Below are positions 39,791-59,336 of a stretch of 64,000 nt of DNA, in pieces. The notes below the pieces were generated by a model. It searched no databases, was not told where the DNA came from, and saw only the letters and a list, made by a program, of their open reading frames with translations. Positions within the stretch are counted from its first letter, which is position 1, and the number at the start of each line of letters is the position of its first letter. Source of the stretch: a virus; the IMG/VR virus record IMGVR_UViG_3300037755_000305, positions 120,112 to 184,111 of that record; one strand, given 5' to 3'. A program made the position numbers and the translations under genes.

Positions 39791-39860
39791 TGGCTCCACA
39801 GGTAGGACCTACAACCCTTCGGTTAACAGCCGAATGCTCTGCCAATTGAGCTACTGTGGA
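39791..39860 (-). tRNA. tRNA-Asn(GTT) with 6-nt T-loop deletion (defective or assembly error)
   Basis: Normal acceptor, D and anticodon arms; T-arm reads GTAGG-T-CCTAC; sits inside a 19-bp perfect inverted repeat (39783-39801 / 39854-39872). Confidence 0.7.
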
Positions 39861-39878
39861 GCCAATCTCCCATCTGTG

Positions 39879-39980
39879 TGCAAGCCAGTGGTTTTCCAAT
39901 TAACCTACAGGTTTCTCAGATCGCCTGTCGCGATCCTTACGTACCCCCGCCGGGACTCGAACCCGGAGTTCTGGCATCAT
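39879..39980 (-). ncRNA. Circularly permuted tRNA-like RNA (YrlA-like topology)
   Basis: The 3' half (GCCAG, T-arm CCGGG-TTCGAGT-CCCGG) precedes the 5' half (D-arm GGTT/AACC, CTGGC-TT-GCA). Confidence 0.6.
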
Positions 39981-39982
39981 CG

Positions 39983-40070
39983 TGGCGGAAGATAGAGGAT
40001 TTGAACCTCTGTGGGTTTTACCCCGCATCGCTTTCCAAGCGAGCCCGTTTGTCCTCTCCGGCAATCTTCC
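39983..40070 (-). tRNA. tRNA-Ser(GGA)
   Basis: Cloverleaf, long variable arm, CCA. Confidence 0.93.
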
Positions 40071-40080
40071 TTAGTCCTTA

Positions 40081-40157
40081 TGGATGGGGAACTGGGATTC
40101 GAACCCAGAACCCGCAGATTCAAAGTCTGCTGCTCTAGCCAGTTGAGCTATTCCCCA
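40081..40157 (-). tRNA. tRNA-Gln(TTG)
   Basis: GCAGA-CT-TTG-AA-TCTGC; CCA. Confidence 0.92.
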
Positions 40158-40176
40158 ATATATTTACATTTCTATG

Positions 40177-40263
40177 CGGAAGAAGGAGGATTCGAACCCC
40201 CGCAGGACTCACATCCTGGCCACTGTTTTCGAAACAGGCACAATACCACTCTGTCATTCTTCC
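40177..40263 (-). tRNA. tRNA-Ser(CGA), CCA not encoded
   Basis: Cloverleaf; G73 followed by CAT. Confidence 0.9.
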
Positions 40264-40271
40264 AGGCTATA

Positions 40272-40357
40272 TGGCGGTGGGCAGAGGAATCGAACCCCTA
40301 GACGATTAAATCTACCATAGTGTTCAAAACTACTTTGCCGCCTTGGCGGTGCCCACC
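40272..40357 (-). tRNA. tRNA-Ser(TGA)
   Basis: GTAGT-TT-TGA-AC-ACTAT; long variable arm; CCA. Confidence 0.88.
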
Positions 40358-40776
40358 GATTTACCATTACGAGATTTACGTTCGTATCCTCGTGCTTTCT
40401 TAGCTGCATAGGTGCTACACACCTTACATACCCTATAGCCTCTTGCATCGTACCGAGTATTCAGCTTTGTGAATTTATGTCCGCGAACACAGTGTGTTTT
40501 ATCCTGATTTACCTTGGTTCCGGCTCCAGAATTGCACTTTAGGTGCGAAAACGCTATGTTGTCGATATCCCAAAACAATTCCGCAGAAACATGCAGCCAG
40601 GGCTCCTTATGTTCTAAGCTAAATTCTTCAATAGCTTCAATAACTTCTCCGCATTGATGGCATCTGTCAAGAGATAATTTACGCACAAGGCTAAACATAA
40701 CCAACTTGCGCAATCTGTGTTGTGCTGTGCCGAAGTTCACCCCTAATTGTTCTGACTTGAGTTTATGATTACTCAT
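40330..40776 (-). mobile_element. HNH homing endonuclease within the tRNA array
   Basis: CHQC...SLEHKEPW...NIAFSHLKCN; C-terminal THCVRGH...RVCKVC. Confidence 0.85.
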
Positions 40777-40860
40777 TTTGCTCCAAGCTATCCTTCACAG
40801 TTTTACCTGTGCCCTGGTGTTCGAAACCAGTTTGTACCCTGTACGGTACCTTCCGTATTA

Positions 40861-40951
40861 TGGCGGCGAAGGTGGGTAACGATCCCACTCGGAGGTATTA
40901 GCTCCGGCCTTGGTTTAGCAAACCAGCACAATTCCTATCTGTCACTTCGCC
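40861..40951 (-). tRNA. tRNA-Ser(GCT)
   Basis: Cloverleaf, long variable arm, CCA. Confidence 0.9.
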
Positions 40952-40958
40952 GTATGTA

Positions 40959-41046
40959 TGGTGAGCAGGGTGGGATTCGAACCCACAGTGGGATTTCTCC
41001 TGCGGATTAAAAGTCCGCCGCATTCAGCCAATTTTGCTACCTGCCC
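40959..41046 (-). tRNA. tRNA with Lys(TTT) anticodon and long variable arm
   Basis: GCGGA-CT-TTT-AA-TCCGC; 15-nt variable region; A73; CCA. Confidence 0.85.
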
Positions 41047-41051
41047 AAATA

Positions 41052-41128
41052 TGGTCCGGGTGGCCGGAGTCGAACCGGCTTCCTCATGCTCCCAAAGCAC
41101 GCGCGTGGCCACATTTCGCTACACCCGG
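41052..41128 (-). tRNA. tRNA-Pro(TGG)
   Basis: Cloverleaf, CCA. Confidence 0.92.
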
Positions 41129-41212
41129 GTAAAATCTATTTCCAACTCTCCTGAGTGATTCCGGGAGACCATTCTCCCCCATAGGTCATCAGGTATTCGC
41201 CTTATCTTCTTC

Positions 41213-41239
41213 CTTTCGGACACTCTCCCAATTTCTTTA
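41213..41239 (-). promoter_or_regulatory. sigma28-type promoter (internal to tRNA block)
   Basis: TAAA-N15-TCCGAAAG. Confidence 0.55.
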
Positions 41240-41247
41240 GTCTAAAC

Positions 41248-41515
41248 CCGCGCCAACCCAGCCCCCGCTGGCCTGTTCATCCTGTCCCTGCCAGTTAGTC
41301 GCTGGCTGCGCCCGTTCAGGATTACACAATATGGATGCCACCCTGGGACTCGAACCCAGAACCACCGGTGTCAGAGACCGGTGCTCTACCATTGAGCTAG
41401 ATGGCAATATGTTGTGCGCCGCCCGGCCCCCGCCGAGTCAGTTCTCCTGCCCCTTACCAGTCGACTACATTGTGTCTCTGGACACGCCCGTTCAGGATAA
41501 CGCAGTATGTCTTTC
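41248..41515 (-). repeat. Two related GC-rich structured elements (about 41248-41328 and 41415-41515), unassigned ncRNA
   Basis: Both share ATCCTGAACGGGCG and a GCGGGGGC hairpin, with collinear similarity between them; they flank tRNA-Gln(CTG). Confidence 0.7.
41332..41406 (-). tRNA. tRNA-Gln(CTG)
   Basis: CCGGT-CT-CTG-AC-ACCGG; CCA. Confidence 0.93.
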
Positions 41516-41561
41516 CTTTCTTCGACTGTATAAGTCTATTACTTTAGACCTATTTGCTAAA

Positions 41562-41648
41562 TGGTGAGCAGGGTGGGATTCGAACCCACATTGTCCTTTC
41601 GGACTCTGGTTAAGAGCCAGTTACATAGCCTGATTCTGTCACCTGCCC
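41562..41648 (-). tRNA. tRNA with Lys(CTT) anticodon and long variable arm
   Basis: CTGG-CT-CTT-AA-CCAG; variable stem-loop GTCC-GAAA-GGAC; A73; CCA. Confidence 0.85.
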
Positions 41649-41650
41649 AT

Positions 41651-58158: not shown

Positions 58159-58189
58159 GATATCGCCCTATTTTTATCACTGGTCTAAA

Positions 58190-58286
58190 ATCACCGGCGT
58201 ACTCAGCGACCGCCTGTCGCGGTCTATGTCATTATACGACAGGGCCCGTAGGGTCCCGACGGGAATCCAACCCGCGTCTCCGGATC
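58190..58286 (-). ncRNA. Permuted/degenerate Asp/Glu-type tRNA-like element with hairpin insertion
   Basis: The 3' half (TCCGG, GCGGG-TTGGATT-CCCGT, CGGGACC) precedes the 5' half (GGCCCTG-TC-GTA...TAC-G-CCGG). Confidence 0.45.
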
Positions 58287-58288
58287 GC

Positions 58289-58365
58289 TGGCACGGCTGA
58301 TAGGATTCGAACCTACAATCTCTGCCTTCGCAGGGCAGGGCTTTCTCCAATTAAGCTACAGCCGT
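58289..58365 (-). tRNA. tRNA-Arg(GCG)
   Basis: CTGCC-CT-GCG-AA-GGCAG; CCA. Confidence 0.9.
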
Positions 58366-58370
58366 ATGTG

Positions 58371-58400
58371 TGGTGGAGACGGTCGGAATCGAACGCCCCC
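58371..58400 (-). pseudogene. 30-nt Ala acceptor microhelix (internally deleted tRNA-Ala)
   Basis: GGGGGCG-TTCGATTCCGAC-CGTCTCC-ACCA; G3:U70. Confidence 0.7.
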
Positions 58401-58422
58401 TAATATGTCCTTTCCTTCAAAG

Positions 58423-58495
58423 TGGTCCAAGGGGCAAGACTCGCACCTGCATTTCCGAGAATTCTCTCGGCGTCCTACGGTTAGACGACCCCGGG
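58423..58495 (-). pseudogene. Degenerate tRNA (6-nt anticodon loop AGAATT)
   Basis: Acceptor, D and T arms and CCA present; anticodon loop abnormal. Confidence 0.6.
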
Positions 58496-58550
58496 ATATT
58501 TCTGGCGAGCAGGTAACCGGACAGATCTCTGTCCAAAACTCGCCGTAATG

Positions 58551-58626
58551 TGGTTGGGGAGGAGGGAATCGAACCCTCTACCTCCGATTTATCAGATCGG
58601 CTATCTAACCAATGATATACACCCCA
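58551..58626 (-). tRNA. tRNA-Ile(GAT)
   Basis: Cloverleaf, CCA. Confidence 0.9.
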
Positions 58627-58645
58627 ATAAGTCCTTTCAAACTTG

Positions 58646-58720
58646 TGGTACTCCCGAACGGTTTCGATCCGTCTTCTCCGCCTTGAGAGGGCAGTATTCT
58701 AGCCAGTAAACTACGGGAGC
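58646..58720 (-). tRNA. tRNA-Glu(CTC)
   Basis: Cloverleaf, CCA; paralog of Glu(TTC). Confidence 0.9.
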
Positions 58721-58726
58721 GTAGTA

Positions 58727-58801
58727 TGGAGCCTCCACTCGGAATCGAACCGAGATCCTCTGAGTACAAAACAGAAATTCTAGCCATTGAACTATAGAGG
58801 C
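58727..58801 (-). tRNA. tRNA-Thr(TGT)
   Basis: TCTGT-TT-TGT-AC-TCAGA; G1-C72, C2-G71; CCA. Confidence 0.8.
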
Positions 58802-58807
58802 AAAATA

Positions 58808-58883
58808 TGGAGCACCATGTCGGGTTCGAACCGACCGCCTTCTGGGTGGAAGCCAGACGCTCTACCAAATGAGCTAATGGTGC
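58808..58883 (-). tRNA. tRNA-Gly(TCC)
   Basis: Cloverleaf, U73, CCA. Confidence 0.92.
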
Positions 58884-58889
58884 ATTATG

Positions 58890-58965
58890 TGGTGGAGACA
58901 GAGGGAATCCAACCCTCCTCAGCCGCATTGCAAGTGCAGCTCGCCCGCTTGGAACATGTGCCCCC
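58890..58965 (-). tRNA. tRNA-Ala(TGC)
   Basis: G3:U70; TGC anticodon; CCA. Confidence 0.88.
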
Positions 58966-58984
58966 TAATTTCCTTCCGTGTAAC

Positions 58985-59059
58985 TGGTTGCGACGGGTGG
59001 AATCGAACCACCGACATAGGGCTTATGAAACCCCTGTTCTACCCCTGAACTACGCCGCA
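58985..59059 (-). tRNA. tRNA-Met(CAT) (elongator or Ile2 type unresolved)
   Basis: Cloverleaf, CAT anticodon, CCA. Confidence 0.88.
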
Positions 59060-59066
59060 TCAAACT

Positions 59067-59105
59067 AAAAAGCCCTTGTACCTTCGGTCAGGTACAAGGG
59101 CTTTT
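59067..59105 (-). terminator. Attenuator terminator ahead of tRNA block 2
   Basis: AAAAGCCCTTGTACCT-GACCGA-AGGTACAAGGGC-TTTTT; the T run ends 8 nt before tRNA-Met. Confidence 0.9.
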
Positions 59106-59127
59106 GTAAAACCTCTTTGCACCCGGA

Positions 59128-59247
59128 CTACATGCGCTCTCCGCGCATTGCCCATTCTCGACCCATACCGGCTGTGGCCGGAATGGTGCCGACGCCGATA
59201 ATTCCGGTCGTGGCAAATGCTGTCGTGTTGAATGCTATGTTGTCCAT
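59128..59247 (-). CDS. Leader peptide 2 (MDNIAFNTTAFATTGIIGVGTIPATAGMGREWAMRGERM)
   Basis: 39-codon ORF ending 22 nt before the terminator hairpin; TTGCAG-N17-TATATC promoter just upstream; composition matches block 2 tRNAs. Confidence 0.75.
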   Translation of the reverse strand: MDNIAFNTTAFATTGIIGVGTIPATAGMGREWAMRGERM

Positions 59248-59336
59248 GATGTAGATATAACACCTTCGTTCGTTCGCTGCAAGCTCTTTAGTCTATTTCT
59301 CTCAGCAGTCAAAAAAAGTCGGGCAACGGGGTCTCC

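Follow-up and report, generated by a model that had tools for sequence, protein, structure and literature searches.

The 64,000-nucleotide stretch of viral DNA analysed here (positions 120,112 to 184,111 of IMG/VR record IMGVR_UViG_3300037755_000305, referred to below as the window) is the final 64 kb of a 184,111-bp linear contig from an uncultured giant phage. Completeness was estimated at 69% using CheckV, and the record ends at the right edge of the window. About 40 tRNA genes were found in three blocks, with no amino acid common to two blocks, and each block is preceded by a short open reading frame (ORF) rich in codons for the amino acids that the block serves. An intrinsic terminator and a competing antiterminator lie at the junction of ORF and tRNA genes, suggesting that each tRNA operon is controlled by its own leader-peptide attenuator. 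All results were obtained by computational analysis of sequence.

Every tRNA gene of the contig detected using ARAGORN and Rfam is inside the window, on the minus strand. ARAGORN at default settings found 29 tRNAs in the window and Rfam at the gathering score found 30, and a scan of the whole contig at E values up to 0.01 gave 32. Four tRNAs were missed at default thresholds, namely Ser(UGA) (40272-40357) and Ala(UGC) (58890-58963), which were seen only when the ARAGORN threshold was lowered, Arg(UCU) and Trp(CCA). With these included, the contents that a first-pass annotation of the window had assigned to the blocks were recovered. The compositions it gave for leaders 1 and 2 were reproduced on recount, and the layout it described, in which a promoter, a short ORF and an intrinsic terminator precede the first tRNA gene, was also found, with terminators ending 3-13 nt before that gene. 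The coordinates of these features are given in Table 1.

Block 1 also encloses an RNase P RNA gene (42260-42536) and HNH-type ORFs, and the tRNA genes of block 2 are interspersed with small ORFs that include HNH, RNaseH-like and Macro-domain genes. The amino acids of block 3 are His, Leu, Asp, Phe, Tyr and Cys. Isoacceptors are scattered inside their own block and never occur in another block, and when the amino-acid labels were permuted 300,000 times, no permutation left every amino acid unsplit between blocks. The tRNA-Arg(UCU) gene of block 2 is split (55266-55911), and its 5' half, which is homologous to an intact gene in the related contig G001 described below, ends at an insertion; the opposite strand of this insertion encodes an HNH_2 endonuclease (55402-55878, plus strand). 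Group I intron models gave no match to this split gene.

Table 1. Coordinates of the tRNA blocks, leader units and atypical tRNA genes. Positions refer to the window unless contig L094 is named
Feature	Position	Strand	Details
tRNA block 1	39794-42833	-	Asn, Pro x3, Lys x2, Gln x2, Ser x4, plus Asn-like gene
Second Asn(GUU) gene	39794-39860	-	67 nt, truncated T arm; distal end of block 1; Rfam 55 bits
Terminator, unit 1	42847-42888	-	With U tract; ends 13 nt before tRNA-Asn; -20.8 kcal/mol, z -3.3
Antiterminator, unit 1	42874-42931	-	-32.2 kcal/mol, z -4.7
Leader ORF 1	42913-42999	-	28 codons + stop; 17 of residues 5-23 in block-1 set
Promoter region, unit 1	43003-43053	-	TG-extended -10 region 7-10 nt ahead of start codon; no Shine-Dalgarno
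tRNA block 2	48872-59059	-	19 tRNA genes: Met x2, Ala, Gly x2, Thr x3, Glu x2, Ile x2, Arg x4, Trp, Val x2
Aberrant tRNA-Arg(UCU) copy	55266-55342	-	Low-scoring, own acceptor stem
tRNA-Trp(CCA)	57566-57638	-	Reduced D arm; missed by ARAGORN and Rfam; found by anticodon-loop scan and cloverleaf fold
Terminator, unit 2	59062-59106	-	16-bp perfect stem + U tract; 3 nt before tRNA-Met; -27.2 kcal/mol, z -7.7
Antiterminator hairpin, unit 2	59088-59127	-	-17.1 kcal/mol, z -3.7; 0/200 shuffles as good
Leader ORF 2	59128-59247	-	39 codons + stop; 33/39 residues in block-2 set (32/38 without Met1)
Promoter, unit 2	59253-59291	-	-35-like hexamer inside 13-nt motif, 17-nt spacer with TG, -10 hexamer
tRNA block 3, distal part	62644-64000	-	Cys, Lys-like tRNA-like gene, Leu(UAA); head beyond window in L094
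Leader ORF 3	L094 6964-7032		22 codons; residues 4-15 all His/Leu/Asp/Phe/Tyr/Cys, all six present
Antiterminator, unit 3	L094 7012-7073
Terminator, unit 3	L094 7052-7095		Ends 3 nt before tRNA-His

The first-pass annotation had also made a risky prediction from the window alone, that a third leader rich in Leu, Cys, His, Tyr, Phe and Asp codons, together with the missing tRNAs for His, Asp, Phe and Tyr, would lie to the right of the window. A sister contig, L094, was retrieved by an exact-protein look-up with the gene at 61836-62606. It differs from the window at 2 positions in 5800 nt (window 58201-64000) and reaches 8.6 kb past the right edge. Both the predicted leader and the predicted tRNAs were found in it. 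The order of block 3, from L094 position 7099, is His, Leu, Asp, Phe, Tyr, Leu and Leu, followed by the Cys and Leu genes present in the window. An artefact of the contig end was ruled out, as L094 and a second contig, L097, both read through the break. The last five residues of leader 3, its stop context and the hairpin that follows are similar to those of leader 1, indicating that these units are paralogues carrying different sensor cassettes. Genes for ribosomal protein S21, a PfkB-family kinase and a tubulin homologue (L094 475-690, 925-1935 and 4846-5946) are located upstream of block 3 in L094.

No cultured relative of this phage was found. At the DNA level, both leader regions were compared with 50,697 cultured phage genomes and gave only tRNA-level matches, and tblastn with the neighbouring tubulin gave no match among cultured phages. 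Two leader-adjacent proteins used as queries retrieved loci without tRNAs, and the Met aminopeptidase retrieved zero relatives. The RtcB protein encoded just downstream of block 1 led to two related giant-phage contigs, G001 (266,640 bp) and G002 (210,369 bp). When viral and metagenome contigs were scanned for exact patterns, the only additions were near-identical copies of G001, and an exact-protein look-up supplied L097, which represents the head of block 3 in the G001 lineage. In that lineage, a 76-aa sigma-70 region-4-like protein (L097 6163-6393) is encoded upstream of block 3. Both the G001 and the G002 lineage have these three amino-acid sets, whereas the tRNA arrays in 78 other RtcB loci and in Xanthomonas phage X1 are unsorted.

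When the initial Met was excluded, the residues belonging to the sets of blocks 1, 2 and 3 numbered 17/8/2 in leader 1, 3/32/3 in leader 2 and 2/6/13 in leader 3. The total of own-block residues, 62 of 86, is the highest that can be attained when the 20 amino acids are divided into sets of five, nine and six. It was reached by none of 2,000,000 random partitions, the best of which gave 59. Binomial probabilities against the phage's own amino-acid usage were 5e-5, 2e-5 and 2e-4. The leaders of the G001 lineage, with 60 of 91 residues in their own block, again correspond to the optimum partition (0 of 1,000,000 random partitions reach that value), and in both lineages each of the 20 amino acids is found in its own leader. 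In leader 2, 27 of the last 28 residues belong to the block-2 set, all nine amino acids are present, and Ser, Lys and Gln are absent. This ORF was also predicted by a gene caller in L094 and L095.

The match extends to individual codons. Leader 1 includes Watson-Crick cognate codons for 12 of 12 block-1 tRNA species; of the 16 codons that can specify the five amino acids, it uses 15. Four species are covered in each of its other two frames, and a coverage of 12 was reached by only one of 100,000 nucleotide shuffles (p = 1e-5). For leader 2, cognate codons were found for 15 of 18 block-2 species, the rare codons ATA and CGA included, a coverage reached by 146 of 100,000 shuffles (p = 1.5e-3). 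Across the leaders, the other reading frames cover four to eight tRNA species.

The -10 hexamer of unit 2 ends 6 nt ahead of the start codon, and no Shine-Dalgarno sequence is present. As the -10 elements of units 1 and 2 are only 6-10 nt from the start codon, the mRNAs of both leaders are predicted to be leaderless or nearly so. Leader 3, unlike leaders 1 and 2, has a Shine-Dalgarno sequence. In the phage generally, the core motif was found upstream of 41 of 144 long ORFs (~28%), compared with 11 of 144 in a control window. The promoter region of unit 2 is ~93% identical to that in the G001 lineage, whereas the body of the ORF has diverged, and in unit 1 a 27-nt segment ending in a double ATG is identical in all three lineages despite divergence of the ORF. 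No further copies of the two core promoters were found in the window at up to two mismatches. A scan with consensus promoter and terminator patterns performed no better than on shuffled sequence and missed the leader terminators themselves.

An identical 13-nt motif was found upstream of leaders 1 (43041-43053) and 2 (59279-59291) on the minus strand. Its distance to the -10 element differs by 7 nt between the two units, and its core recurs after the -10 element of leader 3. In G002 the motif is missing and a tRNA-like fragment is found in its place.

In each unit two mutually exclusive hairpins are predicted, with strong support in units 1 and 3 and moderate support in unit 2, and all antiterminator and terminator energies are well below those of shuffled controls. 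In unit 1, the terminator's 5' arm pairs with the final five or six sense codons of the ORF, and a small conserved hairpin beyond the stop codon lies within this pairing. The energy of this duplex is -23.3 kcal/mol, which was equalled or bettered by 12 of 5000 shuffles. The antiterminator and terminator of unit 3 have energies of -23.2 and -25.8 kcal/mol. For units 1 and 3, it is always the final five or six sense codons that pair with the terminator 5' arm, in duplexes that range from -18 to -26 kcal/mol with shuffle frequencies of 0.002, 0.002, 0.16, 0.0004 and below 0.0002. As the pairing registers of the two paralogues are one column apart in the alignment, duplex energies were taken for each sequence separately. 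Units 1 and 3 differ in the sequence of both strands, and complementarity has therefore been maintained through change.

The antiterminator of unit 2 begins a few nucleotides past the stop codon and includes the terminator 5' arm. The corresponding structures in G001 have energies of -15.0 (antiterminator) and -18.1 kcal/mol (terminator), and the hairpin is kept through paired changes. A covariance model built on the 3' parts of leaders 1 and 3 found only these units in 257 kb of sequence that included the whole contig, and no unit heads a non-tRNA gene. The model also matches leader 2 of G001 weakly (24.5 bits), suggesting that all three units are probably paralogous.

The effect of ribosome position was simulated by masking a 28-nt footprint for each A-site codon and folding the transcript as it would be before the terminator 3' arm exists. 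In unit 1 the antiterminator was predicted to remain intact with the A site at codons 2-19 and to be broken from about codon 21 to the stop codon, and in unit 3 it was intact at codons 2-14 and broken from codon 16. In unit 2 it was intact everywhere but at the last codon and the stop codon. Residues of the leader's own set make up 57 of 69 in the antiterminator-permissive zone and 5 of 17 after it (Fisher p 5e-5). These break points can account for the matched residues reaching the very end of leader 2, and not the common tail of leaders 1 and 3. ORF 1 itself contains a conserved hairpin (42933-42949), which can co-exist with the antiterminator in the folds and may be a pause element.

The units and the make-up of the blocks were conserved in two diverged lineages. 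Homologues of leader 1 were found in G001, G002, L092 and L093, and a 9-nt indel between them is in frame. Leader 2 of G001 has 47 codons, the net length difference of 24 nt again being in frame. Conservation covers the promoter, the first three codons and the C-terminal part, in which synonymous changes are seen at third codon positions, but not the middle, which has been rewritten and is hydrophilic, while the same region looks hydrophobic in the window. Leader 3 of the G001 lineage retains all six amino acids with the order of Phe and Tyr swapped, and substitutions between lineages are mostly within a leader's own set. The in-frame indels and synonymous changes are an indirect signature pointing to translation of the leaders. 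In addition, leader 2 of G001, where tRNA-Arg(UCU) is intact, has two AGA codons, and AGA is absent from the leader in the window, where the tRNA-Arg(UCU) gene is disrupted. This pattern is suggestive of one case of co-variation.

An inserted ORF of the homing-endonuclease type separates the leader-1 terminator from tRNA-Asn in both G001 and G002 (L087 about 5455-5868, and L088 about 7170-7570, minus strand), with the leader unit left intact. The inserted ORF is of the HNH type in G001. Several HNH genes are also found inside the blocks in the window, for example at 40330-40776, and the tRNA arrays appear to be hot spots for homing elements.

The sorting of the tRNA genes, the codon match, the conserved alternative hairpins and the placement of these hairpins relative to the ORF can all be read from the DNA, and it is likely that the units are three multivalent ribosome-mediated transcription attenuators, one for each tRNA operon, that would give feedback control of tRNA supply. 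RNA polymerase would start at a promoter near the start codon, giving a leader mRNA that in two of three cases is leaderless or nearly so, and a ribosome would translate the leader of 22-39 codons. With fast decoding, the ribosome would arrive at the end of the ORF and occupy (units 1 and 3) or adjoin (unit 2) the 5' strand of the antiterminator. The antiterminator would then be blocked, the terminator hairpin would form, and transcription would stop a few nucleotides before the first tRNA. A hold-up on any sensor codon, the sensor codons being those read by tRNAs of the same operon, would allow the antiterminator to form first and sequester the terminator 5' arm, and the whole block would be transcribed. 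We infer that the leaders are translated, that ribosomes stall on them and that stalling affects read-through. The outcome would be negative feedback, as slow decoding of the codons served by a set of tRNAs, be it through a mismatch in codon usage, decay of host tRNAs or a tRNA-cleaving defence, would lead to that set being made. Read-through in block 1 would include the RNase P RNA and probably also the RtcB repair genes downstream. Internal promoters may be present inside the 3-kb and 10-kb blocks.

Several observations weigh against control by codon-specific attenuation. Sorting has a sole exception, a Lys(UUU)-like tRNA-like gene in block 3 (62882-62949, minus strand). This gene is conserved (L086 about 945-1090; L094 9658-9725) and has a non-canonical T loop, and in its G001 copy a four-base anticodon was assigned by ARAGORN. 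The codons AGA, AGG and GTA are absent from leader 2 in the window, and most sensor codons are present only once per leader, so that the response to loss of one tRNA may be weak. Leader 2 of G001 includes 12 off-set residues (Ser x5, Leu x2, Asp x2, Asn, Pro and Gln), and G001 lacks tRNA-Pro(GGG), yet CCC is retained in its leader. As only three lineages were available, two of them diverged, counts of covariation are small. For the unit 2 antiterminator the duplex test was not significant, though the hairpin test was, and no anti-antiterminator (1:2) element was found in the folds of the units. Leaders 1 and 2, without a Shine-Dalgarno sequence, would need leaderless or near-leaderless initiation in the host. 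Finally, folds without a ribosome keep the antiterminator, and read-through is predicted for an untranslated leader. The switch is therefore better described as off when the leader is translated well than as on only when the ribosome stalls. The attenuation proposed in the first-pass annotation agreed with the DNA in every part that sequence could address, but its statement that the tRNAs are made only when the ribosome stalls was too strong.

The predicted behaviour of an untranslated leader is also what would be expected if the same hardware served a general signal, such as overall translation capacity or transcription-translation coupling, and not particular tRNAs, the codon match adding little specificity. 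Such a signal would cover ribosome shortage, global shut-off or conditions that affect initiation on leaderless mRNAs. Read-through is predicted by the folds whenever the end of the ORF is not reached by a ribosome, two of the three leaders are of the leaderless type, for which initiation is condition dependent according to a review (PMC9031893), and most codons are present only once per leader. However, a general signal would work without tRNA genes sorted by amino acid, without three different, optimally matched leader compositions and without a concentration of matched codons in the antiterminator-permissive zone. We consider this explanation rather unlikely.

The leaders could instead encode ordinary small proteins, such as a membrane peptide in unit 2, and have terminators of their own, with tRNAs made through leaky read-through or from other promoters and a leader composition that arose by coincidence or nucleotide bias. 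The hydrophobic middle of leader 2 in the window would fit a membrane peptide, and the richness of leader 1 in A and C promotes Asn, Lys, Pro and Gln codons whatever the frame. Against this, the tRNA coverage was not reproduced by other frames or nucleotide shuffles, and the partition statistic and the successful prediction of a third leader also speak against it. Each terminator, moreover, has a competing antiterminator that is conserved and linked to the ORF end. We consider the idea very improbable. A small membrane peptide in unit 2 was rejected outright, as the middle of leader 2 is hydrophilic in G001 and only its composition is conserved there.

It is equally hard to credit that the leaders are untranslated RNA whose triplets contact anticodons directly in the manner of a T-box, or whose hairpins are elements for processing or stability of tRNA precursors: translation of the leaders is deduced from sequence signs, and RNase P RNA and dense tRNA processing signals are found nearby, but no T-box or other known cis-regulatory RNA family was matched at E up to 1 in the 38-64 kb region, the matched triplets lie in one ATG-to-stop frame in which indels keep the frame and third-position changes are synonymous, and a processing hairpin needs no upstream competitor at the stop codon. 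T-box riboswitches likewise report the state of a specific tRNA through a choice between terminator and antiterminator in a 5' leader, but they bind uncharged tRNA via one specifier codon without translation, whereas the phage triplets are in an ORF. As no match to the Rfam T-box model was obtained in the window at 38000-64000 (E up to 1) or in L094 (E up to 0.1), identification of the leaders as T-boxes was rejected.

Of the properties of leader-peptide attenuators, a short ORF after a promoter, codon enrichment, a terminator, an antiterminator and the geometry of ribosome position were found here in silico, and a 1:2 element and biosynthetic or synthetase targets were not. To our knowledge, the genes regulated by all described leader-peptide attenuators are amino-acid biosynthesis or synthetase genes. 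The genes downstream of the phage leaders are tRNAs, RNase P RNA and small phage ORFs, and tRNA genes as targets are the respect in which these units are new. In full-text literature searches, no description of tRNA genes under leader-peptide control was found, either for phages or for cells. Bacterial tRNA genes are controlled at the promoter level by growth-rate and stringent signals, and we know of no case in which tRNA genes are controlled by a read-out of their own decoding performance.

The enterobacterial attenuators (ilvGMEDA, which senses Ile, Leu and Val; thr, which senses Thr and Ile; trpL, hisL and pheL) have the same layout of promoter, ORF and terminator/antiterminator. In these also, ribosome position selects the hairpin, and one leader can sense several amino acids (ilv and thr). 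The phage units differ in that they would sense five to nine amino acids, mostly through one codon per isoacceptor and not through runs, and in that they jointly partition the 20 amino acids. They are also encoded by a virus, two of three leaders have no Shine-Dalgarno sequence, and the 1:2 element is lacking. The pheST operon, with its pheM leader, is likewise a case of attenuation of a component of the translation apparatus with feedback on decoding capacity, but its target is an aminoacyl-tRNA synthetase, it senses one amino acid, and it belongs to a cellular genome.

A precedent for attenuation by leaderless short ORFs is available in mycobacteria, where it is Cys-responsive (bioRxiv 10.1101/834739). 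The mycobacterial polycysteine ORFs resemble the phage leaders, as these are proposed to act, in being short ORFs at the 5' end that sense amino-acid or tRNA supply and control a downstream operon. They respond to one amino acid and control Cys-related protein genes, and their mechanism and structures are not homologous to those described here.

The RNase P RNA is of a shortened bacterial type A (about 277 nt, 147.8 bits) and is located on the minus strand between two tRNA-Pro genes, at the same place within block 1 in all three lineages (L087 6380-6657; L088 6296-6628). Directly downstream of block 1, on the same strand, are genes for an RtcB tRNA ligase (Pfam E 3e-124) and a calcineurin-like metallophosphoesterase (36178-37410 and 38595-39452, both minus strand), which may be co-transcribed with block 1 as a tRNA repair module. 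Together with the RNase P RNA they fit a module for tRNA supply and repair, possibly directed against tRNA-cleaving defences. A link between the tRNA blocks and attack by anticodon nucleases, which the first-pass annotation brought up, would fit the RtcB gene beside block 1 and the RNase P RNA inside it.

Phage tRNA arrays have been described as a counter-defence against tRNA-cleaving immunity (eLife 2023, PMC10264068; Nature 2024, PMC11464382). They likewise concern large phage tRNA sets, and the RtcB neighbour found here would fit replacement of host tRNAs. The abstracts of the two papers deal with the purpose of phage tRNAs, and neither demand-sensing transcriptional control nor sorting by amino acid was found in them or in the literature searches.

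A wider proposal would be that the phage has a self-regulating system of tRNA supply, in which 20 amino acids are divided among three codon-sensing regulons that are coupled to RNase P RNA and RtcB, are inducible by host tRNA depletion or tRNA-cleaving defence, and have leaders evolving by duplication and re-coding of a modular sensor cassette. For this whole the case is about evenly balanced. If the attenuation is real, it would be the first leader-peptide attenuation of tRNA genes and the most multivalent attenuator known, and would account for the sorting of tRNA genes by amino acid in some giant phages. Phage tRNA sets would then be made as needed, a point relevant to the debate over codon compensation versus counter-defence, and the leaders would provide synthetic biology with compact, orthogonal sensors of individual tRNA pools.

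Other genes of the region were also recorded. A match to the abiF RNA motif (48603-48639, minus strand; 59.8 bits, gathering score 37) is found just past the last tRNA gene of block 2, followed by a 172-aa ORF (48021-48539) that matched no Pfam family. In the G002 relative, a tmRNA gene (140 bits; L088 11224-11586, minus strand) is located near the tail of block 2, and none was found in the window. Genes between or inside the tRNA blocks, all on the minus strand, encode an M24 peptidase of the methionine-aminopeptidase type (44025-44891), a Macro-domain protein (49370-49858) and an RNaseH-like (PF04308) protein (56999-57544). A 198-aa ORF (57562-58158, minus strand) with a borderline match to indole-3-glycerol-phosphate synthase, an enzyme of the Trp pathway, overlaps the tRNA-Trp gene at its 3' end. 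Away from the tRNA genes, a 1124-aa ORF (6731-10105, minus strand) was found to include an intein with a LAGLIDADG homing endonuclease domain.

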